A stretch of 64,000 bases of DNA from Planctomycetota bacterium. Lineage in GTDB: Bacteria; Planctomycetota; UBA1135; UBA2386. Position 1 is the stretch's first letter; every line of letters starts with the position of its first letter. Of this stretch, positions 3,134 through 64,000 are shown piece by piece. The position numbers and the translations under genes are program-made. Location: NCBI GenBank assembly GCA_036274315.1, contig DASUFY010000074.1:698-64697 (forward strand), in the 5' to 3' direction. The notes under the pieces were generated by a model, which saw nothing but the letters and a program-made list of their open reading frames with translations, searched no databases and was not told the DNA's origin.

Positions 3134-3134
3134 C

Positions 3135-7413: not shown

Positions 7414-8163
7414 GTGAAGCTGAGCCGCTGCTGTCGGGGCGCCGTGCTCCTGTGTGGTGTCGTTGCATGGACCGCGTGCGCCGCGCCGCGCACGGCGTCT
7501 GCCCCGCCCGTTGCGCGGCGAGCTGCGCCTGCCGAACCGCCCCGATGGCAATTCGAGGTCGAACCGTACGTGTGGCTGCCCAGCACGGCGGGCACCGGTT
7601 CGACCGACACGACGCCACCGCTGCAGATCGACCTGGTCGGAGAACTCGACGCGGCCTTCCCTCTGGCGGTCGGTGCCAGGTCCCCCGACGGCAGGTTCGA
7701 GGTGCTCGCCGACGGCTTCTACGTGCGACTGAAGGACGACGAGGGCCCGCTGCGCACGACCACCCAGGCGGCGATGGTCGAGAGCGGAGTCGCCGTCGCG
7801 CTCGACGAGGCAAGGCACTTCAGTGCCTTGGTCGGCGTGCGGTACGTGGACGTCAGCTACGACGTGAGCCTGGGCGCGCTCGCCGGGAGCGCGGGCGCGG
7901 ATTGGGTCGATCCATGGATCGGGGCCCGCGCGGTCTTCGCGCTCGACGACACATGGTCCGTCCGCGCGCGCGGCGATGTCGGCGGCTTCGGCGTCGGGAC
8001 CGAGTTCAGCTGGCAGGCGATGGCCTTCGTGGGCGTCGCCGTCTCGAAGAGCGTCGCGTTCGACTTCGGCTACCGCGCCATCGGGATCGACTACCAGGGC
8101 AGCGGCCTGGACTACGAAGTCGTGTTCCACGGCCCGATCATCGGCCTCGTCGTGTCGTTCTGA
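7414..8163 (+). CDS. outer-membrane beta-barrel protein (249 aa), possibly a lipoprotein
   Basis: GTG 7414 is preceded by AGGAG at 7401-7405. The signal is KLSRCCRGAVLLCGVVAWTAC. Alternating beta-strand pattern is present (WSVRARGDVGGFGVGTEFSWQAMAFVGVAVSKSVAFDFGYRAIGIDY). The C-terminus GLVVSF ends in Phe. Confidence 0.7.
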   Translation: MKLSRCCRGAVLLCGVVAWTACAAPRTASAPPVARRAAPAEPPRWQFEVEPYVWLPSTAGTGSTDTTPPLQIDLVGELDAAFPLAVGARSPDGRFEVLADGFYVRLKDDEGPLRTTTQAAMVESGVAVALDEARHFSALVGVRYVDVSYDVSLGALAGSAGADWVDPWIGARAVFALDDTWSVRARGDVGGFGVGTEFSWQAMAFVGVAVSKSVAFDFGYRAIGIDYQGSGLDYEVVFHGPIIGLVVSF

Positions 8164-11251: not shown

Positions 11252-13819
11252 TCAGGGTTGGTCGCTGCGCGCGCAGCGGAAGCCGCAGGCGCAGCGCACG
11301 TGGTCGTGGATGCCATCGGTGCGCACGTTGAACGGCAGGCCCCGCTTGCGCGTGTCCCACCAGGTCCCTCCTTGGATGAACCGTTCGTTCGCCCAGTAGC
11401 GCAGACTGTCGCCGGTGCGGCTGACCCCGACGCTCTCGACCCACTCCTCGACGTTGCCGAGCATGTGGTGCACGCCTTCGGGCGTCGCGGCGTCGGGCAT
11501 CGAGCGCACGGGGGTCGCGAGCCGGACGAAGGCGCTGACCTGTGCCGGCCAGCCGAGGTCGGCCGCGTGCGGATCCTCGCGCTCGAGTGCGCCGCGAACC
11601 TCCGCGTCCTCGGTGGGGGCATACGGCAGCCAGCGATTCTGTTTGCCCCTCGCCGCCCACAGCCACTCGGCGCGCGTCGGCAAGCGCTTGCCGCGCCATT
11701 CCGCATAGGCGCGCGCATCCTCCCAGCTGACGAACACGGCCGGCAACTCCGCGACCTCGGGATGCTCGCTGGCGTGCGCGTCGAGCAGCGACCACGCCAC
11801 GTTCATCGGCCGTTGCGTGCGCTGCACGAACTCGCGGAACTCGCCGATGCTGACCTCGTACCGATCGAGCCAGAACGCGGCCACCGTCGCGACCCGGCCA
11901 CTGCCCGGTCCGGGCGGCGCCAGCGGTTCGGGCTGCAGCAGGTCGCCGCCCTGGATGCGGACCATGTCCGAGCCCGGTTCGGTCGGGCTCGCCGTGCCCG
12001 CGACCACGCACTGCACGACGTGGTTCCAGCGGCCGACGTCGAGCATCCGGGTCAGCTCTCGCAGGCCGCCTGGCAGGTGGAACTGCAAGCGCCAGTAGCC
12101 GGCTGGCAACGCGTGCTGCTCGACCGGCAACGCGCCGAGTTCCACGGTTGGACCGAGCTCGTCGGTGAAGGGGTCGATCCTGCGGGCGGTCGCCGTGCCG
12201 GCGAGCGCGGCGTCGTCGGGGCCGCGCGCGGTCAGCGACACGCGCGCATCGAAGGGCCGGTCCGGAAACGCAGTCTGCACTTCGCGGTCGGTCGGGAACA
12301 GGTGGCGCGCGCGCCCGAGCCGGTGGGTGCTCTCGAACAAGGTCTGGAAGCGCGCCGGATCGTCCGCCACTTCGTCGGTGGGGTTGGTGGCCGAGTGCAA
12401 CAGCGCAAGCCCGCTCTGCAACAGGTCGCGGCGCATTGAGTCGAAGCGCGCGGCCGCCCGATGGACCGGACTCGAGTCGAGCAAGTCGGGGTCTCGCATC
12501 GCCTGCTCGAGTTGCTCGAGCCCGGCCTGCAGTTCGCGATCCGTCAGCGGTTGCCAGTCGGCGATCGCCAGCAGTCGTTCGAGCGCGGCCACGGTCTGTC
12601 GCCGGCCTTGGGCTCGCGTCACCGAACTCGTGGCGAAGCTCGCGCCGGTGGCCGCGACCAGGACCAGCGCGGCGGCACTCAGCGGGCGCCAATGCCGCCG
12701 GCTCCAGTTCTGGAGTCGGCGCCAGACCGGAGTCGGTCGCGCGTGGATGGCGTCGTGCGCGAGGAAGCGCTCGAGGTCGTCGCGCAGCGCCGCCGCGGTC
12801 GGGTATCGATCGGCGACGTCCTTCGCCATCGCCACGCTGCAGATCGTCTCCAGATCGCGCGGTACGCGCTTGTTCCGCTTGCGCACCGGCGGTGCCACAC
12901 TCTGCTGGATCTGGCTGAGGACCTCGTGGTCCGTCAGGCCCTCGAACGGCCGCGTCAGCGTCAGCAGCTCGTAGAGCACCACACCGAGCGAGTACACGTC
13001 CGTGCGATGATCGACGCGATCCTTGCCGCGGAGGCGGGCCTGCTCGGGGCTCATGTAGTAGAGCGAGCCCGGCGCCTCACCGGTGCGCGTGAGCGTGCCG
13101 TAGCGCGCGGTCCGGGCGATGCCGAAGTCGGCCACCTTGACGTGACAGTGGCGGTCGAGCAGCAGGTTCTGCGGCTTGACGTCGCGGTGCACGATGCCGG
13201 CCCGATGGGCGCAGTCGAGTGCGTCGGCCGCATCGGCGCAGATGCGGGCGACGGCCGTGACGTAGCCCGAGTTCGCGAAGGCCGGCAGCAGCGGCGCGGG
13301 ATCGTTCGGCAAACGATCTCTCTGCAGGTCGATCTCGCGCCCCATGTCGTGGCCGTCCACGTACTCCATCGCGAACCAGTGCGTGGCGCCCTCGCTGCCG
13401 TCGGTGAAGACCTGCACGATGTGCGGATGGTTCAACTGCGCGGCGGCGCGCGGCTCGCGGTGGAAGCGCTCGATCTGGCGCTCGGAAGTCGCCAGCGACT
13501 CCGTCAGCACCTTGAGCGCGACCTTGCGGTCGAGCGACCGCTGCGTCGCCAGGTACACGGGCAGGTTGCCGCGCCCCAGTTCGCGTTCGATCACGAAGTC
13601 CTGCAGGCCCGGCGGCTCGGCCTTGGCCGCCGCGGCATGCAGGTCCACGGGCCTCAGGAAGTCGTCGCTGGGATTGGCCGCGAGCAGCGCCATCGCCTCG
13701 GCCCGCATGGCCGCGTCCTCGCCGCAAGCGTCCGCGACGAACGCCGCGCGTTGCTCGACCGGCAGGCCAAGGGCCTGGCCGATGATCTCCTGCATGCGTT
13801 GGAAGCGTGGATCGCTCAC
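11252..13819 (-). CDS. Ser/Thr protein kinase, single TM, with a C-terminal FGE-sulfatase (SUMF1-like) ectodomain
   Basis: GTG 13819 overlaps the sigma gene's TGA (GTGA); the alternative start is ATG 13795. Kinase motifs are ALKVL, HRDVKPQNLLL, DFGIAR and SPEQ. The TM segment is LSAAALVLVAATGASFA. The C-terminus carries FGE-type blocks FWLDRYEVSIGEFREFV, VSWEDARAYAEWRGKRLPTRAEW, HMLGNVEEWV and CGFRCA. Confidence 0.9.
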   Translation of the reverse strand: MSDPRFQRMQEIIGQALGLPVEQRAAFVADACGEDAAMRAEAMALLAANPSDDFLRPVDLHAAAAKAEPPGLQDFVIERELGRGNLPVYLATQRSLDRKVALKVLTESLATSERQIERFHREPRAAAQLNHPHIVQVFTDGSEGATHWFAMEYVDGHDMGREIDLQRDRLPNDPAPLLPAFANSGYVTAVARICADAADALDCAHRAGIVHRDVKPQNLLLDRHCHVKVADFGIARTARYGTLTRTGEAPGSLYYMSPEQARLRGKDRVDHRTDVYSLGVVLYELLTLTRPFEGLTDHEVLSQIQQSVAPPVRKRNKRVPRDLETICSVAMAKDVADRYPTAAALRDDLERFLAHDAIHARPTPVWRRLQNWSRRHWRPLSAAALVLVAATGASFATSSVTRAQGRRQTVAALERLLAIADWQPLTDRELQAGLEQLEQAMRDPDLLDSSPVHRAAARFDSMRRDLLQSGLALLHSATNPTDEVADDPARFQTLFESTHRLGRARHLFPTDREVQTAFPDRPFDARVSLTARGPDDAALAGTATARRIDPFTDELGPTVELGALPVEQHALPAGYWRLQFHLPGGLRELTRMLDVGRWNHVVQCVVAGTASPTEPGSDMVRIQGGDLLQPEPLAPPGPGSGRVATVAAFWLDRYEVSIGEFREFVQRTQRPMNVAWSLLDAHASEHPEVAELPAVFVSWEDARAYAEWRGKRLPTRAEWLWAARGKQNRWLPYAPTEDAEVRGALEREDPHAADLGWPAQVSAFVRLATPVRSMPDAATPEGVHHMLGNVEEWVESVGVSRTGDSLRYWANERFIQGGTWWDTRKRGLPFNVRTDGIHDHVRCACGFRCARSDQP

Positions 13820-14412
13820 GACAGTTCGCGCTTGAGCCACGCGCGCGCCGCGCGCAGTCGGCGTTCGGTGGTGCTCACGCTGAGTTCGAGGTTGTGCGCG
13901 CACTGCGTGACCGTCAGGCCGAGGAAGAAGTGCAGATCGACGATCTGCGCGCCTTCGTGGTCCAGCGCGTAGAGCCGCTCGAGCGACTCGTGCAGCGCGA
14001 CGCAGTCGCTGCCGTCGGTGTGACGTTGCACGGCGTCGGCGACCTCGTCGAGATAGAGCCGCCGGCCCGGCGGCCGGCGTTTCCCGGAGTGCTTGCGCCG
14101 GATGTGATCGACGAGGATCTGGCGCATGGCGCGGGCGGCGACGCGCAGGAAGTGCTCGTGGTTGTTCCAGACCTTGCCCTCGGCGCCGCACAGCTTGATC
14201 CACGCCTCGTGCACGAGCGCCGTCGGCTGCATCGTCGCGGGCCGTCCGCGGGCAACGAGACAGCCGGCGATTGTCCGCAGCTCCAGGTAGATGTCGTGGA
14301 ACAACTCCGCCTGACGGTCGGGGTCGCCAGCTCGCGGGTCGAAGGCACCCGGATCAGGGTCGTGCGTCGGCATCGGCTGGCGTCTCCGGGCGGCCAAGCA
14401 GGCAACGGTCAT
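13816..14412 (-). CDS. ECF sigma factor of the kinase-associated type (Sigma70_ECF / TIGR02999-like; ECF43-like)
   Basis: LFHDIYLELRTIAGCLVARGRPATMQPTALVHEAWIKL...WNNHEHFLRVAARAMRQILVDHIRRKHSGKR matches my memory of this family. Region 4 is IVDLHFFLGLTVTQCAHNLELSVSTTERRLRAARAWL. The start may be ATG 14412 or ATG 14373 (GGAG lies 10 nt upstream of the latter). Confidence 0.9.
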   Translation of the reverse strand: MTVACLAARRRQPMPTHDPDPGAFDPRAGDPDRQAELFHDIYLELRTIAGCLVARGRPATMQPTALVHEAWIKLCGAEGKVWNNHEHFLRVAARAMRQILVDHIRRKHSGKRRPPGRRLYLDEVADAVQRHTDGSDCVALHESLERLYALDHEGAQIVDLHFFLGLTVTQCAHNLELSVSTTERRLRAARAWLKRELS

Positions 14413-23064: not shown

Positions 23065-23333
23065 GGCGGATCGCGCGGGTCTCGGTGTACCCGTTCTGTT
23101 CCCGCGGTGCCGAAAGCGATGTCCGGGCGCGTGGAAACTTCGTGCGCGCGACGTGCGGTCCCATCGCCGAACTCGTGTAACGGCGGACGCGTTGCGCGGC
23201 TTGCTCGGCAGGTCCACCCGGAATCCGAACCACCGCGTCCGTGCCTTCGGCTGCCGCCTTCCGGCGCACGCCGGAGCTCCGGCCCCGTGTACGCCCGCGG
23301 CGCGGCGCCGCGCAGCCCGATACCATCCTCCCG

Positions 23334-26051
23334 ATGTCCGCCTCCCCTGCCGATCAGGACGACGTGCGCACGTTGCTCGAGCAGTGCGTGACGGCGTGGC
23401 ACGAGCAGGGGCCGCGCGCTGCCGAAGCGTTGCTCGAGCAGGCACCGGAGCTCGCGTCGCCCGTGCGCGACGGCCTCGCCGCGCTCGCGCGTGCAGGGCT
23501 GCTCGACGCCGAGGACGCGCCCGAGCTGCCCGAACGCATCGGTGGCTATCGGGTGCTGGCGTTGCTCGGCCGCGGCGGCATGGGTGCCGTGTTCCACGCG
23601 CGCGACGACGCCGCCGGGCGCGACGTCGCGGTAAAGGTCGTGCACCCGCAGCTGCTGTGGTACGGGCGGGCGCGCGAACGCTTCGAACGCGAGATCCGGG
23701 CGCTGGCGCGACTGCGACACCGCGGCGCCGTGCCCGTGTTCCACTTCGGCGACGACGCCGGCGTGCCGTACTTCGTGATGGAGTACGTGCCGGGCCGATC
23801 GCTCGCCCAGGTGCTCGCCGGGTTGTCCGGACGGGCTCCGGGCAGCCTGCGCGGCGCCGACCTGCACGACGGAGCCGACGCGGCGCAGCCGTGGTGGCGC
23901 GCCGTCGTCGGCGTGATGCTGCAGGTCGCCGACACGCTGCACCACGCGCATCAGCTCGGCATCGTGCACCGCGACGTCAAGCCGTCGAACGTGCTCGTGA
24001 CGTCTTCGGGTGAAGCGCGCCTCGTCGACTTCGGGCTCGCGCGCGTCGACGGCGACCCCTCGCTGACGCGCCTGCCGACGACGATCGGTTCGGAACCGTA
24101 CCTCGCGCCCGAACAGTGCACCGAGCACGGTGGCCGCGCCGACGCACGCAGCGACGTGTTCTCGCTCGGCGCGACGTTGTACGAGGCGCTGACCCTGCGC
24201 CCGCCGTTCGGCACCGGCGGGCCGCGCACGCGCGAGCGCATCCTCGCCGGCGACCACGTGCCGCTGCGCAGCGCCGTGCCCGGGTTGGCGCGCGACCTCG
24301 CCGCGGTCGTCGCGGTGGCGATCGACCCGGAGCCGGCGCGCCGGCACGCGACCGCGGGCGCGTTCGCCGACGACCTGCGCGCGGTGCTGGCGGGCCGCCC
24401 GGTCGCAGCGCGACCGATCGGATGGTGCGCACGGCTGCTGCGTCTCGCGCTGCGGCACCGCATCGCTTCGGCCGCGGTCGTGACGGCACTGCTGCTCGTG
24501 GTCGCGGCGCCGACCGCCTTCGCGTGGCAGCAGTACGAGTCGTCGCGGCAGACGCAGGCCGCATTGCAGCGCGCGGTACAGAACCGCGACCGGGCGCTCG
24601 AGGCGATCGACCGCCTGTTGGCCCGCGTCGCGCAAGAACGGCTGTTCGACCTGCCCGAGGCCGAAGGTGCGCGCCGGCGGCTGCTGCTCGACGCGATCGA
24701 GGTCCAGGAGGCGATGTTGCGGGAGTCGCCCGACGACGCGCAGGTCGTGTTGGACGTCGCGGTCGGCAAGCGACGGCTCAGCGAGTTGCACGGTTGGCTC
24801 GGCGACGAGCCTGCCGCGGCGCGCTGCATCGACGAGGCGCTGGTGCTGCTGCGCGGCACGCCCGGCATGTCGGCGATCGAACTCGCGCGCGCGCTGGCGA
24901 TCCACTCGCGCGGCAACGTCACGCGCGGCGACACGGCGGGGGCCGAGGCCGACCTGCGCGAGGCGCTCGGGGCGCTCGAGCGCGAACGCTCGGCGCCGGC
25001 CGCGGCGGACCGCAGCGCGCGGCTCGAGCGCACGATCGCCGAACGTCGCATCGACCTGGCGATCGTCGAGGGCATGCGTGGCAAGGTCGCCGATGCCGAA
25101 CGTGGCCTCGCCGAGGCTCTCGCGACGTTGCGCGCGCTGCCCGAGAACCGCAACACGCTGCAGGCGGTGGGTCGCGCGCTGCTCCAGGGCGCGCTGCCTG
25201 CCGTGCAACGCAACGACAATCAGCTCGCCGCGAGCCTGGCGGCCGGCGCATTCGACGCCTACGGCCGGGCGCTGGAGCTCGATCCGGGCGACTGGGAGCT
25301 GCGCGCGCTGCAGGCACACGCGCAGACCGACCTGGCGAAGATCTGCCATGCCTCGGGCGATGCGGCGCGCGGACTCGAACACGGCGAAGCCGCGCATGCG
25401 ACGCTGGTGACGCTGCACGCCGCACACCCGCAGGTCGCCTGGCTCACGCACCAACTCGCCCAGTGCGGCCTCGCGCTCGCCGACGCCTACCAGGACCACG
25501 GGCGCGAACAGGACGCCCGCGTCGCGCTCGACGACTCGATCGGCATGTTGCGCGAGCTGCTGCGCGCCGAGCCGCGCAAGGTGCAGCTGCGGGAGTCGCT
25601 GGGCCTGGCGCTCGGCATGCGTTCGCTGCTGACGACGTACGTGCACGAGGCGCAGCCGCTGCTCGACGAGGCGCAGCAGTTGTTCGAGGACCTGCAGCGC
25701 GAGGACGCGGGCAACGCGCTGGCCTGGCGCCAGCTCGTGGTCGTCTACGCGAGCCAGGCGAGCCTGCGGCGCACCGCCGAGGACCTCGAGGGCGAGGCGA
25801 AGTGGCTCGACGACGCGATCGCAACGACGCGGCCGTGGGTCGAGAGCAACGTCGCGCCGGCGACCGAGATCCTCGCCGCGCTCTTGCTCGACCGGGCCGA
25901 CTGCGCCGCGCGCGGCGCCGATGCCGAGCTCGCCCGCGAGTTCGTGCGCGAGTCGCTGGCGCTGCGCCGGGCCGGGCGCTCGCAGCTCCAACGGCGTCCC
26001 GGTCTCGCACCGCTGCTGGCGACGCCGGCGTTCGCGGAGCTGCTGAAATGA
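23334..26051 (+). CDS. Ser/Thr protein kinase, single TM, with a long helical-repeat (TPR-like) C-terminal domain (905 aa)
   Basis: ORF 23241..26051 was trimmed to ATG 23334. Kinase motifs are GRGGMGAVF, VAVKVV, HRDVKPSNVLV, DFGLAR and APEQ. The TM segment is IASAAVVTALLLVVAAPTAFA. About 480 aa of Ala/Leu/Arg-rich helical repeats follow. Confidence 0.9.
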   Translation: MSASPADQDDVRTLLEQCVTAWHEQGPRAAEALLEQAPELASPVRDGLAALARAGLLDAEDAPELPERIGGYRVLALLGRGGMGAVFHARDDAAGRDVAVKVVHPQLLWYGRARERFEREIRALARLRHRGAVPVFHFGDDAGVPYFVMEYVPGRSLAQVLAGLSGRAPGSLRGADLHDGADAAQPWWRAVVGVMLQVADTLHHAHQLGIVHRDVKPSNVLVTSSGEARLVDFGLARVDGDPSLTRLPTTIGSEPYLAPEQCTEHGGRADARSDVFSLGATLYEALTLRPPFGTGGPRTRERILAGDHVPLRSAVPGLARDLAAVVAVAIDPEPARRHATAGAFADDLRAVLAGRPVAARPIGWCARLLRLALRHRIASAAVVTALLLVVAAPTAFAWQQYESSRQTQAALQRAVQNRDRALEAIDRLLARVAQERLFDLPEAEGARRRLLLDAIEVQEAMLRESPDDAQVVLDVAVGKRRLSELHGWLGDEPAAARCIDEALVLLRGTPGMSAIELARALAIHSRGNVTRGDTAGAEADLREALGALERERSAPAAADRSARLERTIAERRIDLAIVEGMRGKVADAERGLAEALATLRALPENRNTLQAVGRALLQGALPAVQRNDNQLAASLAAGAFDAYGRALELDPGDWELRALQAHAQTDLAKICHASGDAARGLEHGEAAHATLVTLHAAHPQVAWLTHQLAQCGLALADAYQDHGREQDARVALDDSIGMLRELLRAEPRKVQLRESLGLALGMRSLLTTYVHEAQPLLDEAQQLFEDLQREDAGNALAWRQLVVVYASQASLRRTAEDLEGEAKWLDDAIATTRPWVESNVAPATEILAALLLDRADCAARGADAELAREFVRESLALRRAGRSQLQRRPGLAPLLATPAFAELLK

Positions 26052-29051: not shown

Positions 29052-29299
29052 CGGTGCGCGGCGCCGGCCTCTGTGGCCGCGCGCCGTCAGCACGACCGGC
29101 GGTTCCGGGTGCGTCGGGATGCATCCTGGTACTCGACCCGGCCGCCGGCAATGCGTTCGGCGCCATCATGACGAACGCCGGCATGACCGTGATCGGCCAC
29201 TAGTCCGGGCCGGCCGGCACACGCGGACCGCCGGCGTCGCCGCGGTCCGCGGGATCAGAGGCTGCCGAGACCGAGCCCGACGGGCTACGATCCGCGCCC

Positions 29300-29890
29300 G
29301 TGCACACTCGCGACCACGAGTGGTTCGAACAGGCTCGGCGCGGCGACAGCGGCGCGCTCGAACGGCTCGTCGAGAGCTACCTGCCGCAGCTGCACGCGTT
29401 CGTGCGCGTGCGCCTGGGCGGCGTCGTGCGGGCGCGCGAATCGAGCATGGACATCGTGCAGTCGGCCTGCCGCGAGCTGCTCGCCGACCCGAGCCGGCAC
29501 GAGTTCCGCGGCGAGGCCCGCTTCCGCGGCTGGTTGTTCACGATCGCGCTCAACAAGCTGCGCGAGAAGCACCGCTTCCACGGCCGCGAGATGCGCAGCC
29601 CCGTGCGTGAGAACGACGCCGGCGTCGACGACCTGCTGCCCGCGGCGAGCCTGCTGACGCCGAGTGTCGACGCGATCGGCCGTGAGACCGCGGCGGCGCT
29701 CGACGCCGCGATGCAGGCTCTGAGCGAGGAGCACCGCGAGGTCATCACGATGGCGCGCATCGCCCAGCTGCCGTACGAGGTCATCGCCGAGCTCATGGGC
29801 CGCAGCGAGCAGGCCGTGCGGCAGTTGCTCGTGCGTGCGTTGCGCCGGCTCGCCGAGGAGCTGCGGGCCCGGGGCGTCGCTTCGGACTGA
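29300..29890 (+). CDS. ECF sigma factor (196 aa), paralog of the 26048..26656 product
   Basis: The start is GTG 29300. Motifs are YLPQLHAFVRVRLG...ESSMDIVQSACRELL (region 2), FRGWLFTIALNKL, and REVITMARIAQLPYEVIAELMGRSEQAVRQLLVRAL (region 4). Confidence 0.9.
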   Translation: MHTRDHEWFEQARRGDSGALERLVESYLPQLHAFVRVRLGGVVRARESSMDIVQSACRELLADPSRHEFRGEARFRGWLFTIALNKLREKHRFHGREMRSPVRENDAGVDDLLPAASLLTPSVDAIGRETAAALDAAMQALSEEHREVITMARIAQLPYEVIAELMGRSEQAVRQLLVRALRRLAEELRARGVASD

Positions 29891-36550: not shown

Positions 36551-37531
36551 TCAGCCGCGGGCCGGGCGCCAGCGCGCCCCGCGGTGCAGCAGCACCGAAT
36601 CCAGCACCGAGACCGCCGCGGCGGCGACGAGCAGCCACATGCCGGCGAGCGGCGTCGGGCTCGCGAGGGCGTCGAGTTTCGTGAACACGACCAGCAGCGC
36701 CAGGACGAAGACGTCGAGCATCGACAGGCCGTCGAGCAGGAGCAGACGCTCGCGCCACTTGGCGTGCTGCGGGCGCACGAGCCGCAGCACGAACAGCGCG
36801 AGCAGACGCAGTGTCGGCAGCACCACGACGAACAGGAGCAGCGTGCTGCCGAGCACCCAATCGCCGCGTTGCAGCAGCTGGCCGACACCCCGCAGGAGCG
36901 AGTAGCGATTCCCCCAGAAGAAGCCCTTTTCGACGTCGAGCAGCGGCAACGACAGGCCGGCGCCGTACAGGACCGCGGCCGGCACGGTCAGCCAGAGTCC
37001 CCGTCGCGTGAACGGGCGTCGCGGTTGGCGCCGTCGGCTGCGCACGATCGCGCTCAGCAGCAGGATCGCCACGAGCGACAGCAGGATCGACGCGAGGTAG
37101 ACGTACGCGCCGGGCAGCGCGGCCGCCTGGCTCAGCAGGCCGAGCTGCACCGTGCCGACGAGCACGGCGATGACGAACGCGTCGAGCAGCGACCATTTGC
37201 CCAGTAGCTCGAGCCAGTCGACGATCTCGACTCGCGTCGGCTCGCGCGTGGGCACGAACCACAGCACGAGGATGCCGCCGAGCTTGATCGCCGGGAACGC
37301 GACCGAGAAACCGAACAGCAGCAGCGCCAACAGGATGTTGCCCGAGGTTGCGAAGCTCCAGATGCCGGAAACCACCGAGAACGTCTCGTCGCCGACCAGG
37401 AACAAGTTGTCGAAAGTGAGCGCCGGCCGCGTCACCCCGAATACGAGCAACGCAAGCGCGAGACCCGCGACGATCGGCACGTCGACGCGGCGCGGGGACT
37501 CCAGGCGAAGGGATCGGAGGTCGTTCACCAT
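36551..37531 (-). CDS. PqiA-family integral membrane protein (326 aa)
   Basis: ORF 36551..37738 was trimmed to ATG 37531. It has multiple TM segments in two similar halves (…GNILLALLLFGFSVAFPAIKL… and …GSTLLLFVVVLPTLRLLALFVL…, each followed by LLD.F/LDVFV). No MCE (PqiB-like) partner is adjacent. Confidence 0.65.
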   Translation of the reverse strand: MVNDLRSLRLESPRRVDVPIVAGLALALLVFGVTRPALTFDNLFLVGDETFSVVSGIWSFATSGNILLALLLFGFSVAFPAIKLGGILVLWFVPTREPTRVEIVDWLELLGKWSLLDAFVIAVLVGTVQLGLLSQAAALPGAYVYLASILLSLVAILLLSAIVRSRRRQPRRPFTRRGLWLTVPAAVLYGAGLSLPLLDVEKGFFWGNRYSLLRGVGQLLQRGDWVLGSTLLLFVVVLPTLRLLALFVLRLVRPQHAKWRERLLLLDGLSMLDVFVLALLVVFTKLDALASPTPLAGMWLLVAAAAVSVLDSVLLHRGARWRPARG

Positions 37532-37626
37532 GCCGCGGCCCCATGGTAATCGACTCGGGGCCGTGCGCCGATGTCGATCCCGAACCGCGCGAGCATCGCG
37601 CGACGCGGCCCTCGACCGCGGGTCGG

Positions 37627-38280
37627 ATGGCGATCCACGGGCCCACGTTCGCCGACTTCCTCGCGAGGTTCGCGGCCGCCGCCGCCGACTACGCCGGCAT
37701 GTATCTTCGCACGAAGGGTGTCGACGCGACGCCGGCACAGCGCGAACAGGCGATCGCCGACCTCGAGAAGGTGCTCGGCATGACCGAGGACGACTCCATC
37801 GTCGAACGCATCCACCGCGCGATCTGGGAGGAGCAGCACCTCGGCATCGGCAAGGCGGCGCCCGACATCGAGGGCGAGGACCTCGACGGCGTGGCGTTCA
37901 AGCTCAGCGACCATCGCGGCAAGGTGGTCATGCTCACCTTCTGGGGCGATTGGTGAGGCCCCTGCCGGGCCATGTACCCGCACGAGCGGTCGCTCGTGCA
38001 CGATCTCGCCGACGAGCCGTTCGTCCTGATCGGCGTCAACAGCGACGAGGACAAGGATGCGCTGAAGCCGCGGCTCGCCGAGGAGCGCATCTCGTGGCGC
38101 AGCTCCAGGAACGGTCCCGAGGGCACCGAGGGGCCGATCGCCAAGGCCTGGAACGTGACCGGCTGGCCCATGGTCTACGTCATCGACCACGACGGAGTGA
38201 TCCGGCACAAGAGCCACGGCGGCGAGGCCATGGACGCGGCGCTGAGGAAGTGCATCGAGCTGGCCAACATGAATCGCTGA
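37627..38280 (+). CDS. thioredoxin-fold thiol:disulfide oxidoreductase (TlpA/redoxin-like) with an in-frame TGA at the CxxC position; candidate selenoprotein (motif W-U-G-P-C)
   Basis: Track ORFs 37543..37956 and 37972..38280 are in the same frame and are separated only by TGA 37954-37956. Read-through gives GKAAPDIEGEDLDGVAFKLSDHRGKVVMLTFWGDW-[TGA]-GPCRAMYPHERSLVHDLADEPFVLIGVNSD...GWPMVYVIDHDGVIRH. This is the canonical redoxin layout with TGA where the first Cys of WCxPC sits. The start is ATG 37627 (alternative 37543). No signal peptide is seen. Confidence 0.7.
37980..37999 (+). promoter_or_regulatory. candidate bacterial SECIS-type hairpin (8-bp stem, GGUC tetraloop) downstream of the in-frame UGA
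   Basis: G-CACGAGC-GGUC-GCUCGUG-C was read directly from the sequence. The stem starts 24 nt after the UGA and the loop starts 31 nt after it. The GGUC loop matches my recollection of the apical loop of the E. coli fdhF SECIS. Confidence 0.5.
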
Positions 38281-38541
38281 CAGGCGCGACGCTGTGAATG
38301 GCGCCCCGGAGCCACTGGCTGAACCCGCTGATGGCGCTGCTTGGTGCCGCCGGCCACGTGCGGTCCAGCGGTAGTCGGGTGGAGTGGCGAGCGCGCCTCG
38401 AGCGCCCGCTTGACGCGCAATCGCCGCTTGGGGAACGTGCCCTCGCGGCCGGGTACCGGGACACGAGTTGGAGTCGGCTCGCTCTCCGGTGCACCCATCG
38501 TGGCGCCGCGCCCGGTCCAGGCAGCGGTCCCCTCCACCCAC

Positions 38542-57431: not shown

Positions 57432-58331
57432 CTAGCCGCCGGTGACGGTCGGACGCCACGACTCGTCGGGGTCGTAGCTGTCGATCTTCTTCGCGGCCGA
57501 CGCCGTGTCGGCCCCGAGATCGCGTTCGAAGACGATGCCCTGCTGGTTGACGAGGAACGTCATCACGCCGGAGTTGCCGTACGTCGCGGGCCAGGCCAGG
57601 AACGCGAACCCGAAGCGCAGCGCGCCGTCCTTGTCCTCGTAGTCGCGCGCGCCACCGGGCGCGTCGGCGCCCTGGCGCGTGAGGATGCGGTAGTAGTAGC
57701 CCTGGTACGGGGCTGGCTCGCTCGCCTCGGTGCGATCGTAGCCCTGCGTGGCAGCTTCGGCGACCAGCGGGCCGAGCGGGCTCGGCGTCTCGCCTTCGCC
57801 GACCGGCCAGTAGAGGCCATCCTTCTTGCCAGGGCTGCTGAGGACCTTGGCGGCGTACATGGAGCCCTTCGCGTCGGAGGTCAGCGCGGCGTACTCACGT
57901 TCGGCCTCGACGCAGGCGCGCAGCGTCTCGATGGTCGACAGCTCGTTGCGACCGACCCGGCGGCTCAGGATCTCGTCGAGGCCCGCCTCGACGTCGAAGC
58001 GCCAGCGATCGCCCACCTTGACCAGCGGCAGCGGCAGCGGCCAGCCGTCGTTGCCGAGCAGCGCCGTGCACACGTCGCCATCGGTCGCGAAGGCGACCTT
58101 CTCGCGGATCAGGCCGCGCACGGTGTCGATGTCCTCGTGGTCGGCGACCTCGTCGCCGGAACGCAGCGCCTCGAAGCCGCCGGGGCCGAGCAGCTCCTCG
58201 GCGCGCGCCTTGTCCTCGGCGCTGTCGACGAGCGCCTGCACGGCGGCTTCGGGAGACTCGAACGTGAGGGGCGCGGACGCGCACGCGGGCACGAACAACG
58301 CCAGCAAGATCGGAAGGTGGATCCGTGTCAT
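57432..58331 (-). CDS. DUF2950 family secreted protein (299 aa)
   Basis: ORF 57432..58613 was trimmed to ATG 58331. The signal is ILLALFVPACASA. Family blocks are SSPGKKDGLYWP, PYQGYYYRILTRQG..APGGA, FAFLAWPATYGNSGVMTFLVNQQG. It follows the DUF3300 gene, which is its usual partner. Confidence 0.85.
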   Translation of the reverse strand: MTRIHLPILLALFVPACASAPLTFESPEAAVQALVDSAEDKARAEELLGPGGFEALRSGDEVADHEDIDTVRGLIREKVAFATDGDVCTALLGNDGWPLPLPLVKVGDRWRFDVEAGLDEILSRRVGRNELSTIETLRACVEAEREYAALTSDAKGSMYAAKVLSSPGKKDGLYWPVGEGETPSPLGPLVAEAATQGYDRTEASEPAPYQGYYYRILTRQGADAPGGARDYEDKDGALRFGFAFLAWPATYGNSGVMTFLVNQQGIVFERDLGADTASAAKKIDSYDPDESWRPTVTGG

Positions 58332-58356
58332 GGGGTCTCTCCTGTGGGCTTGGGCA

Positions 58357-59691
58357 TCAGCGACCGCGACCGCCGCCGCGACCGCCGCCGCCACGCGAAC
58401 CGCCGCTGCGCGAACCGCTCGAACGCGTGCCGCGCGAACTGGCGCCCCGGCTGCTCGAGGCGCGCGCGGTGCTCGCGCTCTTGCTGCCGCTGAAGCTGCC
58501 GCTGCGTTGGCCCGTCGACTTGTTGGTGCGCGACGTCGAACCCGCGGTGCCCGTGCTCGGGCGCGTCGATGGAGTCGTGCGGGGCGTCGTGCCCGCACTC
58601 GGGCGGGCCGCATTCCCGGCGCCGCCGCGGTTCGCCGGCTGCGTGCCCGCGGAGGGTCCGTAGCCGCGCGCCTGGTCGCGGCTCACGCGGTTCGACGTGC
58701 CGGCACCGCCGAACTGTTTGGCCGTCGCGTTGTCGCGATAGCCGACGCCCTTGCGGTGCGATGGGTCGTGCTGCCACTTGTTGTTGCCGCCGCCGCCCGA
58801 CGGGCGGTTCGAGGGCCGGTTGCCGCCGAAGTTGTTGTCCGTGCGGCCGCCGAAGTTGTTCTGGCGGTCGATGTCGATGTTGACGTTGTTGTTGCCGCCG
58901 TGGCCCCAGTGGCAACCGCCCCAGATCGCCGCGCCCCAGGCGACGCCGACGGCGAACGAGAACGCGGCGTAGCCGGGCGGGTAGGCCGGGTACATCGCCG
59001 GGTAGTAGTAGGACGGGTAGCCCCAGCCGGGGTAGACGGCCGTCGGGTAGTACGTGGGCACGTAGACGACCTCGGGGCTCGTCGACTCGATCACGATCAC
59101 CTTGTCCTCGCGTTGCTCGACCTTCTGCTCCTTGGAGGTCTTCAGGTTGCCGGACTCGTACGCCTTGCGCCGCATGACCTGGACGGCGTCCATGAGCGCG
59201 GACTGGTCGGCGAGGAAGGCGTCACCGAGATCCTGCGTCCACTCGAGGTTGTCGTTCATGCGCTTCAGCACGCTCTGCAGGCCGCAGATCGACTTGACGC
59301 TCGGGTCCCAGTCCTTGTCCTTGAGCGCCTTCTCGAGCGCCTCGCCCTGCAGCGACGGGTTCTTCTGCTGCCAGCGCGCGGCCTCGACGATCTCGAGCGG
59401 GTACGTGGAAGCCATCAACACCTGCGCCAGCAGGCCGTCGTCGTAGAGTGCGATCGGCGCGACGAGCTGCTCGAGCTTCTCCTTGGGGATCGGCGCGGCC
59501 TTGGCCGCGTCCTGTGCGCCTTCCTTCGGCGGGGTCTTCGCCGGTTCCTGCGGCTTGGCGTCCGCGGGGGCGGGATTCTGGGCCGCGGCGGCCGGCGGCT
59601 TCGCGGCCGCTGCCGGCGGCTTCGGTTCCTGGGCTGGAACGGCCGCACCGAACAGCAGCAGTGCGGCGACGTGGGAGGTTCGGGTCAGCAT
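58357..59691 (-). CDS. DUF3300 family secreted protein with a long Gly/Ser/Arg low-complexity tail (444 aa)
   Basis: The signal is VAALLLFGAAVPAQ. Family blocks are LVAPIALYDDGLLAQVLMASTYPLEIVEAARW, WDPSVKSICGLQSVLKRM, and VVYVPTYYP. The last roughly 180 aa are N/G/S/T/R-rich and end in GGSRGGGGRGGGRGR. Confidence 0.85.
   Translation of the reverse strand: MLTRTSHVAALLLFGAAVPAQEPKPPAAAAKPPAAAAQNPAPADAKPQEPAKTPPKEGAQDAAKAAPIPKEKLEQLVAPIALYDDGLLAQVLMASTYPLEIVEAARWQQKNPSLQGEALEKALKDKDWDPSVKSICGLQSVLKRMNDNLEWTQDLGDAFLADQSALMDAVQVMRRKAYESGNLKTSKEQKVEQREDKVIVIESTSPEVVYVPTYYPTAVYPGWGYPSYYYPAMYPAYPPGYAAFSFAVGVAWGAAIWGGCHWGHGGNNNVNIDIDRQNNFGGRTDNNFGGNRPSNRPSGGGGNNKWQHDPSHRKGVGYRDNATAKQFGGAGTSNRVSRDQARGYGPSAGTQPANRGGAGNAARPSAGTTPRTTPSTRPSTGTAGSTSRTNKSTGQRSGSFSGSKSASTARASSSRGASSRGTRSSGSRSGGSRGGGGRGGGRGR
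58360..58620 (-). repeat. low-complexity coding repeat (Ser/Arg/Gly-rich tail of the DUF3300 protein)
   Basis: Imperfect CGNCCGCCG/CGNGAACC-type periodicity encodes ...SGSKSASTARASSSRGASSRGTRSSGSRSGGSRGGGGRGGGRGR. Confidence 0.6.
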
Positions 59692-59760
59692 GTCGTGTTC
59701 GTCCTGGTCAACATGGTGCGACGTTGGAAGCGTAGGGCGGTGCGGCCGCAGGGCACGCCA

Positions 59761-61209
59761 TCATCCCCCCGCCGGCGGCGGCTCGCCAGTCGGCGGTGCG
59801 GCCGCTGCGGGTTCGGCAGGCCAGCCGCCGCCGAGCGCCTTGTACAGCTGGATCAGCGAGACGTACTGGTCGCGGATCGCCTCGGCCTCGCTGAGCTCCG
59901 AATCGAGCAGCGAACGCTGGGCGTCGAGCACGTCGAGGTAGGGCGCGACGTCGCCGCGGTAGCGGACCTCGGCGAGGGCCAGGACCTGGCGCTCGGCCGC
60001 GACGCGGCTCGACTCCGAACTGCGCCGTTCGCCGAACTTGCGGTACCCGACCAGCGAGTCCTCGACCTCGCGCAGCGCGCGCAGGATCGCCTGCTCGTAG
60101 GCGGCCAGCGTCTGGCGCTCGAGCGACTCGGCGACCTCGACGCGACTCTGCAGCTGGCCCGAGTTGAAGATCGGTTGCAGCAGGTTGGCGCCCAGCGACC
60201 AGGTGCGCGCCGGCGCGGTCGCGAGATCCTGCAGCTCGGTGCTCTCGAACCCGAAGAAGCCGGTCAACGAGATCGACGGGTAGAGCAGCGCCTTCGCTTC
60301 GCCGATGCGCGCGTTGGCCGCGACGAGGTCCTGCTCGGCGGCGGCGAGGTCGGGCCGCCGCTGCAGCAGTTCGGACGGCAGACCGGCCGGGACCTGCGGC
60401 GGCAGCGGCATCGTGGCGACGGCGGCGCCGCGCGGGATCGGACCCGGGTTGCGGCCGAGCAGCAGGTTGAGCTCGTTCTCCTTCTGCGTCACGAGGCGCT
60501 CGAAGTCGTGCATCTGCGCTTCCGTGCGGTGCAGTTCGGCCTCCGCCTGCCGGAAGTCGAGTTCGGAGGTCAGGCCGCCTTCGTAGCGGATGCGCACGAG
60601 CTCGAGGTACTGGCGCCGAGACAGCACCGTCGCGTTTGCGATCTCGAGGCGCCGGTCGAAGTCGCGCAACTCGACGTAGGCCTGCGCGACGTCCCCGACG
60701 AGGGCCAGCACGATCGCGGCGCGCGCATGCTCGGTGCTGAACAGGATCGCCTGCTGCGCCTCGGAGGCGCGCCGGATGCGGCCGAACAGGTCGATCTCCC
60801 AGGACGCCGAGGCCCCGGCGCCGTAGACGCTGCGCTGGATGTCGGCGCCCGTGGGGCCGTTCGGCAGGCTCTCTTCGCTGATGCGTTCGGTCCGGGCGCC
60901 GGCGCCGACGTCGACCTTCGGCCACAGGTCGGCGCGCGTGAAGCCGTAGCGGGCCCGGGCCTCTTCGATGCGTTCGACGGCGATCCTGAGGTCGAGATTG
61001 TGTTCGAGCGCCGTCTTGATCAGGTCGTGCAGCACCGGATCCGGGTAGAGCTCCCACCAGGGCACGTTGGCCAGCGACTCACCCTGCTTGCCCTCGAGTT
61101 CGCGCCAGCCCTGCGGCATCGCGATCTCGGGCGGCGCGTAGTCGGGGCCGACGGTGCAGCCGTTCGGCGCGAGCCCCAGGAGACAGACCACGAGCAGTCG
61201 GCGGTTCAT
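59761..61209 (-). CDS. RND efflux outer-membrane factor lipoprotein (NodT family, 482 aa)
   Basis: The lipobox and family opening is LLGLAPNGCTVGPDYAPP. Two OEP repeats are present. The ATG lies 1 nt after the RND permease stop. Confidence 0.95.
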   Translation of the reverse strand: MNRRLLVVCLLGLAPNGCTVGPDYAPPEIAMPQGWRELEGKQGESLANVPWWELYPDPVLHDLIKTALEHNLDLRIAVERIEEARARYGFTRADLWPKVDVGAGARTERISEESLPNGPTGADIQRSVYGAGASASWEIDLFGRIRRASEAQQAILFSTEHARAAIVLALVGDVAQAYVELRDFDRRLEIANATVLSRRQYLELVRIRYEGGLTSELDFRQAEAELHRTEAQMHDFERLVTQKENELNLLLGRNPGPIPRGAAVATMPLPPQVPAGLPSELLQRRPDLAAAEQDLVAANARIGEAKALLYPSISLTGFFGFESTELQDLATAPARTWSLGANLLQPIFNSGQLQSRVEVAESLERQTLAAYEQAILRALREVEDSLVGYRKFGERRSSESSRVAAERQVLALAEVRYRGDVAPYLDVLDAQRSLLDSELSEAEAIRDQYVSLIQLYKALGGGWPAEPAAAAPPTGEPPPAGG

Positions 61210-61210
61210 G

Positions 61211-64000
61211 TCAGTGTCCTCCGGTGGTGGCCGGCTCGCCCGGCGCCTCTGGCTCGCCCGGCTCGCTCGGCGGCGCCGGCGGGGCCTTGGTCTTGCCGCG
61301 ACGGCCCAACGACTCGACGAACACGTAGTTGCCGGGGATCAGGAAGACGCCGAGGAAGGTCGCGACGAGCATGCCCCAGAACACCGCGGTGCCCATCACG
61401 TTCTGCGCGCCGGCGCCGGCGCCCGACGCGATCATCAGCGGCACGACGCCGAGGATGAACGCGAACGCCGTCATCAGGATCGGCCGGAAGCGCAGCCGCG
61501 CCGACTCGAGCGCGGCCTCCATGAGCGGCATGCCCTCGTCGTGCTTGGCCTTGGCGAATTCGACGATCAGGATCGCGTTCTTCGCCGCCAGTCCGATCAG
61601 CATGATCAGGCCGATCTGCACGTAGACGTTGTTGTCGAAGCCAGCCAGCCAGACGCCGAAGAACGCCCCGAGCGCCACGAGCGGCGAGCCGAGCAGCACG
61701 GCCCAGGGCAGGCGCCAGCTCTCGTACATCGCGGCCAGCAGCAGGAACACGCACAGGATCGCCATCAGCAGCGTCGGCCCGGCCGGCGGTGCCACCTTCT
61801 CCTGGTACGACAGCGACGAGTACGCGAACCCCATCTCCGGGGGCATCTTCTCCTTGAACACCTCCTCGAGGGCGGCGAGCGCCTGGCCCGACGAGTAGCC
61901 GCGGCCCGGCACGCCCTGGATCTCGGCGGAGCGGAACAGGTTGAACCGGTTGGTGATCTCGGTGCCCGACTGCGCGGAGACGTTCGCGATCGTCGACAGC
62001 GGCACCATGTCCCCGCTGCTGCTGCGCACGTGGATGCGACCGATGTCCTCGGGCTTCTGCCGGTCCTCGCCTTCGGCCTGCAGGTAGACGCGGAACAGGC
62101 GGCCGAAGCGGTTGAAGTCGTTGACGTAGGAGCTGCCCAACGCCGCGGACATCGCCTGGTAGGCTTCGTTGAGCGCGATGCCGAGCTTGCGCGCCTTGTC
62201 GCGGTCGATGTCGACCTTGACCTGCGGGTAGGTCGGGTCGAACGACGTGAACAGGTTGCCGAGCTCGGGACGCGCCCGCGCCGCGTCGAGGAACGTGGCG
62301 ACGTGCGTGCCGAGTTCGGCCACGCTCAGCGAACCGCTGCGGTCCTGCACGAGGAAGTTGAAACCGGCCGACGCGCCGAACCCGGAGATGGTCGGGATGT
62401 TGAACGGGAAGATGACCGCATCGGGGATGCGCCGCAGCTCCTGCTGCAGCTTCGCCATCAGGCCCTTCACGTGCAGATCGGGCCCCTTGCGTTCCGCCCA
62501 CGGCCTGAGGCGCGCGAACACCGTGCCGAAGTTGGGTTGGTAGGTGCTCGTGACGGCACCGAAGCCGCCGATCGTCTGCGACGCCTCGACGCCGTCGAGT
62601 TGCGCCAGCAGCGCCTCGACCTTGCCCAGCACGTCGCTCGTGCGCTGCAGCGACGCACCGGGCGGCAGCTGCACGTTGACGCCGAACACGCCGAGGTCCT
62701 CGTCGGGGATGAAGCCCTGCGACAGGCGCCCGCCGAACACGCCGGCGCCGTAGACGACGCCGCCGATGATCACGAGCGTCAGGATCGAACGACGCGCCAG
62801 CAGGCGCGTGACGCCGACGTAGCCCTTGGTGGTGGTGTCGAACGTCTTGTTGAACAGCTTGAAGAACCAGCCCAGCGGGCCGCGCATCGGCTTCGCCGGT
62901 TTCAGCAGCATCGCCGACAACGCGGGCGACAACGACAGCGCGCTGAACGCCGACAGCAGCACCGAGATCGCGATCGTCAGCGCGAACTGCTGGAACATCT
63001 GGCCGGTCAGGCCGCCGAGCATCGCGACGGGCACGAACACCGCGGACAGGATCAGCGCGATGCCGATGACCGGCGCCGACACCTCCTTCATCGCCTGTTC
63101 GGTCGCCTCCCGCGGGCTCTTGCCGTGCTCGATGTGGTGCATCACGGCCTCGACGACGACGATCGCGTCGTCGACGACGATGCCGATGGCGAGCACGAGG
63201 CCGAACATCGACAGCGTGTTGACCGAGAACCCGAGCATCGGGAAGAACAGGAACGTGCCGATCAGCGAGACCGGCACGGTCAGCAGCGGGATCAGCGTCG
63301 CGCGCAGGTTCTGCAGGAAGAAGAACACGACGAGCGTCACGAGGACGATGGCCTCGAGGAACGTGTGCAGGATCGACTCGATCGACGCCTCGACGGCCGG
63401 CGTCGTGTCGTAGACGATCTTGTAGTCCATGTCGGGCGGGAACAGCTCCTTGGCCCGCGCCATCGTCGTGTAGATCGCCTCCGACGCCTTGAGCTGGTTC
63501 GCGCCCGGCAGCAGGTAGACGGCCATCGCGCCGGCGGGCTTGCCGTCGAGTCGGCCGAACGAGTCGTAGTTCTGCGAGCCGAGTTCGGCGCGGCCGATGT
63601 CGCGGATGCGGATCTGCGCGCCGGTCTCGGTCTCGCGCACGATGATGTCGTCGAACTCGGCGGGCGTGAGCAGGCGGCCCGGCGCGCTGACGGTGTACGT
63701 GAACTGCTGCCCGGGCGGCGTCGGTTCGCCGCCGATCTTGCCGGCCGGCGCCAGCAGGTTCTGTTCCTTGATCACGGCCGCGACGTCCGCCGGCGTGACG
63801 CCGAGCTGCGCCATGCGGTCCGGCTTGAGCCAGATGCGCATGCCGTAGTCGGTGCCGCCGAACAGATCGACCTGGGCGATGCCGGGGATGCGCAGCAGCT
63901 GGTCGCGCAGGTTGATGCCGCAGTAGTTGATGAGGAACTTCGCGTCGTACGCGCCCCCCGGCGAGTACAGCGACAGGATCATCAGGATGCTGGGGCTCTG
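61211..64000 (-). CDS. RND (HAE1, AcrB/MexB-like) efflux permease, 5' end outside the window
   Basis: The frame is open to the window edge (2790 nt = 930 codons). The layout is typical AcrB: porter-domain blocks and TM clusters (...VVDDAIVVVEAVMHHIE..., ...AKNAILIVEFAK...). Confidence 0.95.
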   Translation of the reverse strand, partial: QSPSILMILSLYSPGGAYDAKFLINYCGINLRDQLLRIPGIAQVDLFGGTDYGMRIWLKPDRMAQLGVTPADVAAVIKEQNLLAPAGKIGGEPTPPGQQFTYTVSAPGRLLTPAEFDDIIVRETETGAQIRIRDIGRAELGSQNYDSFGRLDGKPAGAMAVYLLPGANQLKASEAIYTTMARAKELFPPDMDYKIVYDTTPAVEASIESILHTFLEAIVLVTLVVFFFLQNLRATLIPLLTVPVSLIGTFLFFPMLGFSVNTLSMFGLVLAIGIVVDDAIVVVEAVMHHIEHGKSPREATEQAMKEVSAPVIGIALILSAVFVPVAMLGGLTGQMFQQFALTIAISVLLSAFSALSLSPALSAMLLKPAKPMRGPLGWFFKLFNKTFDTTTKGYVGVTRLLARRSILTLVIIGGVVYGAGVFGGRLSQGFIPDEDLGVFGVNVQLPPGASLQRTSDVLGKVEALLAQLDGVEASQTIGGFGAVTSTYQPNFGTVFARLRPWAERKGPDLHVKGLMAKLQQELRRIPDAVIFPFNIPTISGFGASAGFNFLVQDRSGSLSVAELGTHVATFLDAARARPELGNLFTSFDPTYPQVKVDIDRDKARKLGIALNEAYQAMSAALGSSYVNDFNRFGRLFRVYLQAEGEDRQKPEDIGRIHVRSSSGDMVPLSTIANVSAQSGTEITNRFNLFRSAEIQGVPGRGYSSGQALAALEEVFKEKMPPEMGFAYSSLSYQEKVAPPAGPTLLMAILCVFLLLAAMYESWRLPWAVLLGSPLVALGAFFGVWLAGFDNNVYVQIGLIMLIGLAAKNAILIVEFAKAKHDEGMPLMEAALESARLRFRPILMTAFAFILGVVPLMIASGAGAGAQNVMGTAVFWGMLVATFLGVFLIPGNYVFVESLGRRGKTKAPPAPPSEPGEPEAPGEPATTGGH

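Follow-up and report, generated by a model that had tools for sequence, protein, structure and literature searches.

A 64,000-nt stretch of contig DASUFY010000074.1 from a Planctomycetota bacterium (the whole of which is called the window below) contains two adjacent open reading frames (ORFs), 37543..37956 and 37972..38280, which lie in one common frame and whose sole interruption is the TGA at 37954-37956, as the first-pass annotation had reported. Does this TGA end a gene, or is it translated as selenocysteine (Sec)? Our comparison with related sequences indicated that 37627..38280 is very probably a single gene for a TlpA/redoxin-type oxidoreductase whose nucleophile is Sec (W-U-G-P-C) and which is functionally decoded in this copy; that the family to which it belongs consists of selenoproteins appeared close to certain.

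The reading frame across the TGA

The G+C content at third codon positions (GC3) in the gene frame was 0.9-1.0 from ~37603 to ~38260, unbroken over the TGA, with 0.94-0.95 on either side of it and with neither a frameshift nor an additional stop. When a coding signature was required on each side of a TGA (GC3 > 0.85 and no other stop within 50 codons), the one at 37954-37956 was the only TGA in the 64 kb to carry it, and no second selenoprotein candidate was obtained in the window in this way. As TGA terminated 23 of the 30 predicted genes of the window, the TlpA-like gene included, the codon is not globally reassigned. The independent Logan assembly of run SRR25158403 also carried TGA at 37954-37956. 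One Logan contig (L206:1412-1438, equivalent to window 37954-37980) stopped at ...ATGTACCCG, one base short of the core of the downstream hairpin described below; a contig would end in this way if the de Bruijn graph broke at a k-mer that several paralogous copies of the Sec insertion sequence (SECIS) in the sample have in common.

The likely translation start was ATG 37627, since GC3 was 1.0 from there onward and the in-frame extension 37543-37626 had a GC3 of 0.79 and no homology to any family member; a leaderless protein of ~217 residues would result. By eye, no signal peptide or transmembrane segment, and hence no export signal, was seen after either ATG 37627 or ATG 37543. The start of the divergent PqiA gene at 37532 lies 10 nt from ATG 37543 and 94 nt from ATG 37627.

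It had been predicted that automated annotation would split or truncate such a gene, and this was borne out. The product of the N-terminal ORF was identical to the NCBI entry 'MAG TPA: hypothetical protein VFZ65_05315 [Planctomycetota bacterium]', which has 137 aa and is encoded on a 65,481-bp contig, and no entry for the C-terminal product was found among the protein-search matches listed, so that public annotation cuts the gene short: what is recorded as a 137-aa 'hypothetical protein' from a doubtful ATG would in fact be a ~217-aa redox enzyme with an active-site Sec. Four protein matches were mis-called relatives, either ending in ...FWGDW/HW or beginning with MYPHERSLV five codons past the motif, and P0046, P0101 and P0107 showed both signs; in the DNA of these relatives TGA stood at the equivalent codon, followed by the identical 15 nt and then ATG. 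The same annotation error thus affects at least the recovered relatives with ORFs that end in ...FWGDW or start with MYPHERSLV. Another protein, P0017, read FWGNW-RGL-RAMYPHERSLV, one residue shorter than W-U-GPC-R; a Sec gene that has degraded or was mis-called may underlie it.

A TlpA-like protein with the TGA at the nucleophilic position

To the read-through product the first-pass annotation had assigned a TlpA/redoxin-type fold, with the stop exactly where the nucleophilic Cys of W-C-x-P-C belongs, and both assignments held. Four Pfam families scored above their cut-offs: AhpC-TSA (62.9 bits, cut-off 26, E 3.6e-17), Redoxin (52.3 bits, 26.6), Thioredoxin_8 (46.6 bits, 27) and Thioredoxin (35.6 bits, 23.5); PF00578, PF08534 and PF13905 served as tests of membership in the TlpA-like/redoxin grouping, to which CDD cd02966 also belongs. 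The PDB relatives of the domain were 3KCM (the closest), ResA, TlpA and DsbE, and in alignments with solved structures of the TlpA/ResA type the TGA stood opposite the first Cys of WCxPC (WCPPC in 3KCM), as it did in alignments with homologs; the Pfam and PDB sequence matches left no ambiguity in the assignment of the fold. The NCBIfam equivalogs all remained below cut-off, namely ResA (NF002854, 65.6 bits against 170), DsbE (TIGR00385, 47.8 against 123) and TlpA (NF047696, 46.5 against 230), as did the ResA-like WAxxUGC selenoprotein model NF041054 (37 bits against 300). Judged by these scores, the window protein is a superfamily relative only.

The closest relative among the loci found was L006 (Planctomycetota HKST-UBA81), a 359-aa protein with the signal peptide MRTSRLPFVAALGLTF... 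The window copy shared 60% identity with it over 37696-38274 and 70% in the domain, but tblastn aligned L006 from its residue 158 on, which corresponds to window 37696. L006 and most relatives possess a signal peptide or membrane anchor; the majority of the database relatives measured 360-420 aa and consisted of a signal peptide, a ~200-residue helical domain and a C-terminal CGPC thioredoxin domain. Shorter members also occur: in most of them (L123, L132, L168) a signal peptide directly precedes the thioredoxin domain, and in L139 and L152, as in the window copy, the N-terminus is short and shows no obvious signal peptide. The thioredoxin domain of the window copy is complete.

Homologs and the Sec/Cys codon

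The first-pass annotation had proposed an alignment in which most homologs should have Cys at this position and close relatives TGA, and this is what was found. In the protein search, for which the counts cover the 120 matches listed, there were 97 matches to a CxxC-type motif. The scan of genome contigs yielded three kinds of locus. L006 had TGA at the equivalent codon and the identical hairpin; L016 also had TGA there, with a different hairpin nearer the UGA; and 16 Gemmatales/Pirellulales-type loci had TGC or TGT at the codon, encoded the peptide PHEREMV with varied codons and lacked the hairpin. The pattern used to scan metagenomes, TGGGGNSAYTGGTGANNNCCNTGY, stops 15 nt upstream of the hairpin, so that the hairpin was not part of the search; the resolving Cys was part of it, and the conservation of that residue in the metagenome set is thus built in. 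At least 120 contigs were recovered, soil- and marine-type names among them, and all but ~6 of the matches were true family sites. Counting L006, L001-L003, L016 and at least ~115 metagenome sites, TGA was present at the same codon in at least ~120 homologous sites overall. Judged by how abundant the family is in metagenomes, extracytoplasmic thiol-disulfide chemistry that depends on Sec would seem to be common in Planctomycetota.

Multi-Sec proteins are uncommon in bacteria. In this family, ORFs made of two fused modules, each ORF holding two in-frame TGAs without another stop between them, were obtained at L003:653-2935, L001:1152-3055, L002:3-1964 and in L161, and four tandem genes with one TGA each at L154:1952-5506. 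A member on a 98-kb contig (L097:4723-4779) had an additional in-frame TAG seven codons past the TGA; it arose by a CC-to-GG change that also completed a perfect inverted repeat, GCGCC-ATGTA-GGCGC, which points either to template switching at a quasi-palindrome or to an artefact. The different hairpin of L016 (L016:10205-10264, GUGUGGG-CGAGUU-CCCACAC) begins 10 nt past the UGA, and a distant TlpA-like gene, L165 (match 1943-1966, minus strand), had TGA at the same codon and again a different downstream hairpin. These two loci suggest that the superfamily may hold more than one SECIS solution, or may have undergone independent Cys-to-Sec events.

The hairpin downstream of the UGA

A hairpin with a GGUC loop about 31 nt past the UGA had been noted at 37980-37999. 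It was present there and was contained in the minimum-free-energy fold, the loop beginning 31 nt after the UGA and the stem at nt 27/28, i.e. 23-24 nt from the UGA. The hairpin alone folded with -13.9 kcal/mol (z = -3.95), and none of 200 shuffles folded as well; for its 67-nt context, z was -2.1. The core occurred once in the 64-kb window. The published bacterial SECIS model asks for a loop of 3-9 nt, an upper stem of 4-16 bp, a G in the first two loop positions, a UGA-loop distance of 16-37 nt and a minimum free energy of -7.5 kcal/mol or lower (PMC13188914). Compared with this model by hand, the hairpin agreed in every respect (a 4-nt GGUC loop, an 8-bp stem, GG first, 31-nt spacing and -13.9 kcal/mol), which supports its proposed role as a SECIS candidate.

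To see how the hairpin is kept in the family, codon entropy was computed over 118 unique 120-nt segments and base pairing over 119 distinct sequences. The outermost G-C pair of the stem was specific to the window copy, and the remainder equalled the family consensus at 100%. The hairpin codons +9 to +13 were near fixed (CAC 114/116, GAG 114/115, CGG 118/118, TCG 116/116, CTC 115/117), with an entropy of 0-0.14 bits against 1-2.2 bits in the flanks, where Arg +16 reached 2.16 bits, Leu +17 1.99 bits, and Gly, Pro, Val and Ala codons 1.3-1.9 bits. Only the outermost pair, at the third base of a Val codon, was free to vary. In the base-pair set 96.4% of the cells were paired and four of the seven pairs showed double-sided compensatory change; not one of 500 shuffles attained any of five pairing and covariation measures, and when the 3' arm was slid it paired in 15-43% of the cells. 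Two of the compensations were paid for in amino acids: the change of G-C to A-U in L136 entailed Leu->Phe, and that of C-G to U-A in L089 entailed Val->Met. In L181 a G-C pair was flipped to C-G, and in L172 and L184 the changes led only to G-U wobbles. The loop residues G35 and G36 were invariant in 119 of 119 sequences, and U37 was kept in 117 (the other two having GGAC). The constraint on synonymous sites and the compensatory changes show that the hairpin is under selection as RNA. The family SECIS core thus appears hard-wired, as ACGAGC-GGUC-GCUCGU starting 24 nt past the UGA.

A terminator or promoter role was also considered for the hairpin and was rejected, no terminator-like or sigma-70-like site and no T-run being found in 37300-38500.

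Cys and Arg forms of the family

If the hairpin serves the UGA, it should be expendable once the UGA is gone. The DNA of six HERSLV-encoding Cys forms (L207, L208, L209, L211, L212 and L213) was compared. Three of them, L207, L208 and L212 (all TGC), retained the exact hairpin, L207 and L208 being close relatives from one project; the other three carried uncompensated synonymous damage, in the form of loop G36->C in L209, G33->A in L211 and C42->G in L213. The hairpin was therefore intact in 116 of 119 Sec forms and in 3 of 6 Cys forms (Fisher p ~0.001), the pattern expected of a SECIS that decays as a 'fossil' after Sec-to-Cys conversion. One sequence, L210, had CGA (Arg) at the Sec codon and an intact hairpin; it could reflect a recent inactivating mutation or an error.

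With at least ~120 sequences, the family makes an unusually clean natural data set for a SECIS overlaid on coding sequence, in which invariant hairpin codons, compensations that cost amino acids and decaying fossil hairpins in Cys forms can be seen together.

Sec machinery beside family members

The recovered loci were searched by tblastn with E. coli SelD, SelA and SelB sequences as queries. In L176 a TlpA-like Sec gene (minus strand, ending ...DFWGDW at 291) was found to adjoin a Sec-machinery cluster, the whole spanning 291-7795 in the order tRNA-SeC (1927-2023), selD (~2164-3204), a HEAT-repeat gene (3238-4335), selA (4332-5738) and selB (5870-7795). The NCBIfam scores were above cut-off for SelD (349.9 against 125 bits), SelA (496.7 against 267.9) and SelB (339.3 against 242.25). 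The selD gene of L176 is itself interrupted by an in-frame UGA (SCAG-U-ASK); the hairpin behind this codon likewise begins at +28, and its loop is GUC. The SECIS geometry of the TlpA-like genes therefore recurs in a gene whose selenoprotein status is undisputed, in an organism that carries the family. That organism is distant from the source of the window (60% vs 71% GC). Elsewhere a tRNA-SeC was located 1.8 kb from the family gene (L145), and selB was adjacent to it (L139). We infer that the source metagenome-assembled genome possesses the Sec machinery as well; an intact Sec gene would imply selenium use by this high-GC planctomycete.

What is established about Sec decoding in bacteria and about the chemistry of the thioredoxin fold allows the following course to be proposed. 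With a ribosome at UGA 37954-56, the hairpin would be positioned at the mRNA entrance, where its GGUC apical loop would recruit SelB-GTP with Sec-tRNA(Sec) while the UGA is in the A site. Sec would then be inserted in place of termination by release factor 2, and translation would proceed to the TGA at 38278-80. In the finished protein, Sec and the Cys three residues on would cycle between the selenol/thiol and the selenenylsulfide, and this redox pair would reduce disulfides (or peroxide-type substrates) of partner proteins.

Weighing the alternatives

Several observations weigh against Sec decoding in the window copy. ARAGORN detected no tRNA, and thus no tRNA-Sec, in the 64-kb window, and Pfam scans of its 30 predicted ORFs gave no SelA, SelB or SelD. 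No Rfam family (release 15) reached its gathering score anywhere in the window, so none matches the hairpin, and the interval 37900-38100 returned only chance-level unrelated matches (E >= 0.4). The covariation comes from single sequences per pair in a mostly invariant alignment, and the exact hairpin in L207, L208, L212 and L210 means that an intact hairpin alone does not prove current Sec decoding. As for the protein, the window copy lacks the signal peptide and ~150 N-terminal residues of L006 and of most ~360-420-aa relatives; no trace of the missing domain was found upstream of 37696 in any frame, and the region where it would lie is the divergent PqiA gene (36551-37532, minus strand). 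With that part absent, the copy could be a 5'-truncated relic. Among 45 columns with a conservation of 90% or more it also differs at 4, which puts its divergence in the upper ~13% for family members, and it reads S-R where most relatives read F/W-W (...WRSSRNG vs ...WRSFWNG).

The explanation that survives best next to Sec decoding is built on these points: the family would be a true selenoprotein family, but the window copy 5'-truncated or nonfunctional, or its lineage recently deprived of Sec decoding, the UGA then stopping translation at 109-137 residues. We kept it under consideration because the copy is leaderless and N-terminally short and its conserved-column deviations are on the high side; these include WPT->WPM and the SFW->SSR region. 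The count of four nevertheless falls inside the family range of 0-7, and the TGA, the resolving Cys, the WP motif and the 100%-consensus hairpin with its extra closing G-C pair are all intact in a frame free of frameshifts and extra stops, with equal GC3 on both sides of the TGA. The fossil hairpins of the Cys and Arg forms do illustrate that intactness can outlive function, and a 64-kb window without Sec genes would fit a lineage that has lost decoding. A short N-terminus is, however, shared by L139 and L152, the former beside selB, and short Cys forms, e.g. P0112 (162 aa), exist on long contigs. Taken together, a relic appears unlikely here, and we infer that the N-terminally shortened, leaderless copy is expressed.

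Far less probable is that the locus holds two genes or a regulated truncation, in which the hairpin would be an attenuator or terminator, a pausing signal or an mRNA-stability element, or that the UGA is read as Cys or Trp. The downstream 'gene' would begin within the thioredoxin fold, 5 codons past the active-site residue, and the hairpin is accompanied by no T-run or terminator-like site. Its retention in some Cys forms and the missing SECIS match in Rfam could hint at a role independent of Sec, but its decay falls preferentially in Cys forms, the family adjoins selC, selD, selA and selB, and the geometry is like that after the selD UGA of L176. TGA is, moreover, the normal stop in the window, where it ends 23 of 30 genes.

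That a plain nonsense mutation (TGC/TGT -> TGA), or a mistake in sequencing or assembly, left a pseudogene beside a coincidental hairpin is hardly credible and effectively refuted by the comparative data: TGC -> TGA is a one-base change and hairpins form easily in high-GC sequence (as the modest z of the 67-nt context recalls), but TGA recurs at the same codon in at least ~120 independent homologous sites and in the independent SRR25158403 assembly, and the hairpin is conserved at synonymous sites, covaries and by itself was equalled by none of its shuffles.

Features and neighbouring genes

The features of the locus are collected in Table 1. Elsewhere in the window, two Ser/Thr protein kinase genes were found at 11252-14353 (minus strand) and 23181-26051 (plus strand), the former of which is fused to a domain of the FGE-sulfatase (formylglycine-generating-enzyme-like) type, and several regions for extracytoplasmic function (ECF) sigma factors were present as well (3117-7283, 29204-29890); the kinases, the FGE-sulfatase fusion and the ECF regions fit a planctomycete genome. 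At 57432-64000 (minus strand) a DUF2950 and DUF3300 gene pair lies beside an outer-membrane efflux protein and an AcrB-type resistance-nodulation-division pump.

Table 1. Coordinates of the features at the TlpA-like locus (positions in the window).
Feature	Position	Strand	Basis or detail
PqiA-family membrane protein gene, divergent	36551-37532	-	start 37532
Upstream in-frame extension, start of the NCBI 137-aa fragment; probably noncoding	37543..37626	+	GC3 0.79; G+C content at second codon positions 0.64
Predicted TlpA/redoxin-like selenoprotein, entire coding sequence	37627..38280	+	217 codons counting the Sec codon; GC3, Pfam, L006 homology
Remnant of alpha-helical N-terminal domain, last ~50 residues	37696..37845	+	tblastn with L006
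Thioredoxin-fold (AhpC-TSA/Redoxin) domain	37846..38208	+	PF00578 over residues 102-222 of the 245-aa translation
In-frame UGA, predicted Sec at the nucleophilic position of U-G-P-C	37954..37956	+	aligns with first Cys of CxxC homologs
Resolving Cys codon TGC of U-x-x-C	37963..37965	+	direct reading; Cys codon in the protein-search genome loci
Candidate bacterial SECIS hairpin, G-CACGAGC-GGUC-GCUCGUG-C	37980..37999	+	stem 37980-37987 with 37992-37999, 8 bp; loop GGUC 37988-37991
Putative cis-proline, P of G-W-P-M	38167..38169	+	in the gWPT column of the family alignment; taken by us to be cis-Pro from knowledge of the thioredoxin fold
True stop codon TGA, without a following hairpin	38278..38280	+	direct reading

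Comparison with known systems

That Sec replaces Cys in UxxC thioredoxin-like and redoxin proteins of bacteria, as the first-pass annotation stated, agrees with the literature. Thiol-disulfide isomerase-like and peroxiredoxin (Prx)-like UxxC selenoproteins were described in 2005 from the Sargasso Sea metagenome (PMC1088965), and a 2026 review of prokaryotic selenoproteomes (PMC13188914) lists a thiol-disulfide isomerase-like family under cd02966, each protein having a single Sec. Some Planctomycetes are Sec users, and thiol-disulfide-isomerase-like candidates have been given for planctomycete P1 in table S9, rated 'SECIS: no' by bSECISearch (PMC4807772). The class is therefore already known and catalogued, and the known picture of Sec decoding is unchanged. 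With the TlpA-like UxxC selenoproteins the window protein shares the TlpA/redoxin fold, Sec for the first Cys of CxxC, widespread Cys homologs and a SECIS within the coding sequence, in a comparison made by description; the subfamilies may differ. Those proteins have one Sec each, whereas the relatives found here include the two-UGA fused ORFs L001-L003 and L161; and in contrast to the P1 candidates, the window family has a very clear hairpin.

The Prx-like UxxC selenoproteins (PMC1088965, PMC5029168), again compared by description, resemble the window protein in that AhpC-TSA is the best Pfam match and the motif is a thioredoxin-type UxxC rather than TxxU; the N-terminal helical domain and the planctomycete expansion are not described there. 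NF041054 likewise has a ResA/TlpA-like fold and a redox motif with Sec at its start, but the score far below its cut-off and the motif FWGDW-U-G-P-C instead of WAxxUGC show that the window protein is not a member. The Cys-type TlpA/ResA/CcmG(DsbE) reductases (1JFU, 1ST9 and 3KH7; closest 3KCM) have the same fold, motif position and domain length and, as in most relatives of the window gene, a signal peptide or membrane anchor. They differ in having Cys in place of Sec, and the window protein scores below the cut-offs of their equivalogs and lacks a signal peptide, while its relatives bear the ~200-residue helical N-domain.

The likeness to the E. coli fdhF SECIS, drawn by the first-pass annotation, stood in part. 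The fdhF element is a 17-nt hairpin at nt 15-31, 11 nt from the UGA, which needs a bulged U17, and E. coli SelB contacts G23/U24 of its loop (PMC8659212). Both are small hairpins within the coding sequence past the UGA, with a four-base GGUC-type loop containing G-U. The spacing did not agree, being 23-24 nt here, where the stem starts at nt 27/28 and the loop G-U lies at nt 36-37; nor did the stem, which is perfect and without a bulge. The window hairpin is not an fdhF-type element, and the SelB/SECIS geometry, with the stem at +28, is unlike that of E. coli.

Against this background, the size and uniformity of the family, its single hard-wired SECIS and its two-UGA fused and tandem architectures may be undescribed. 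It is a tenable, though tentative, view that they represent a large Planctomycetota-centred expansion of TlpA-like selenoproteins, undescribed as such, with one hard-wired SECIS and tandem or fused multi-Sec forms, in which the leaderless window copy would possibly be a cytoplasmic offshoot.

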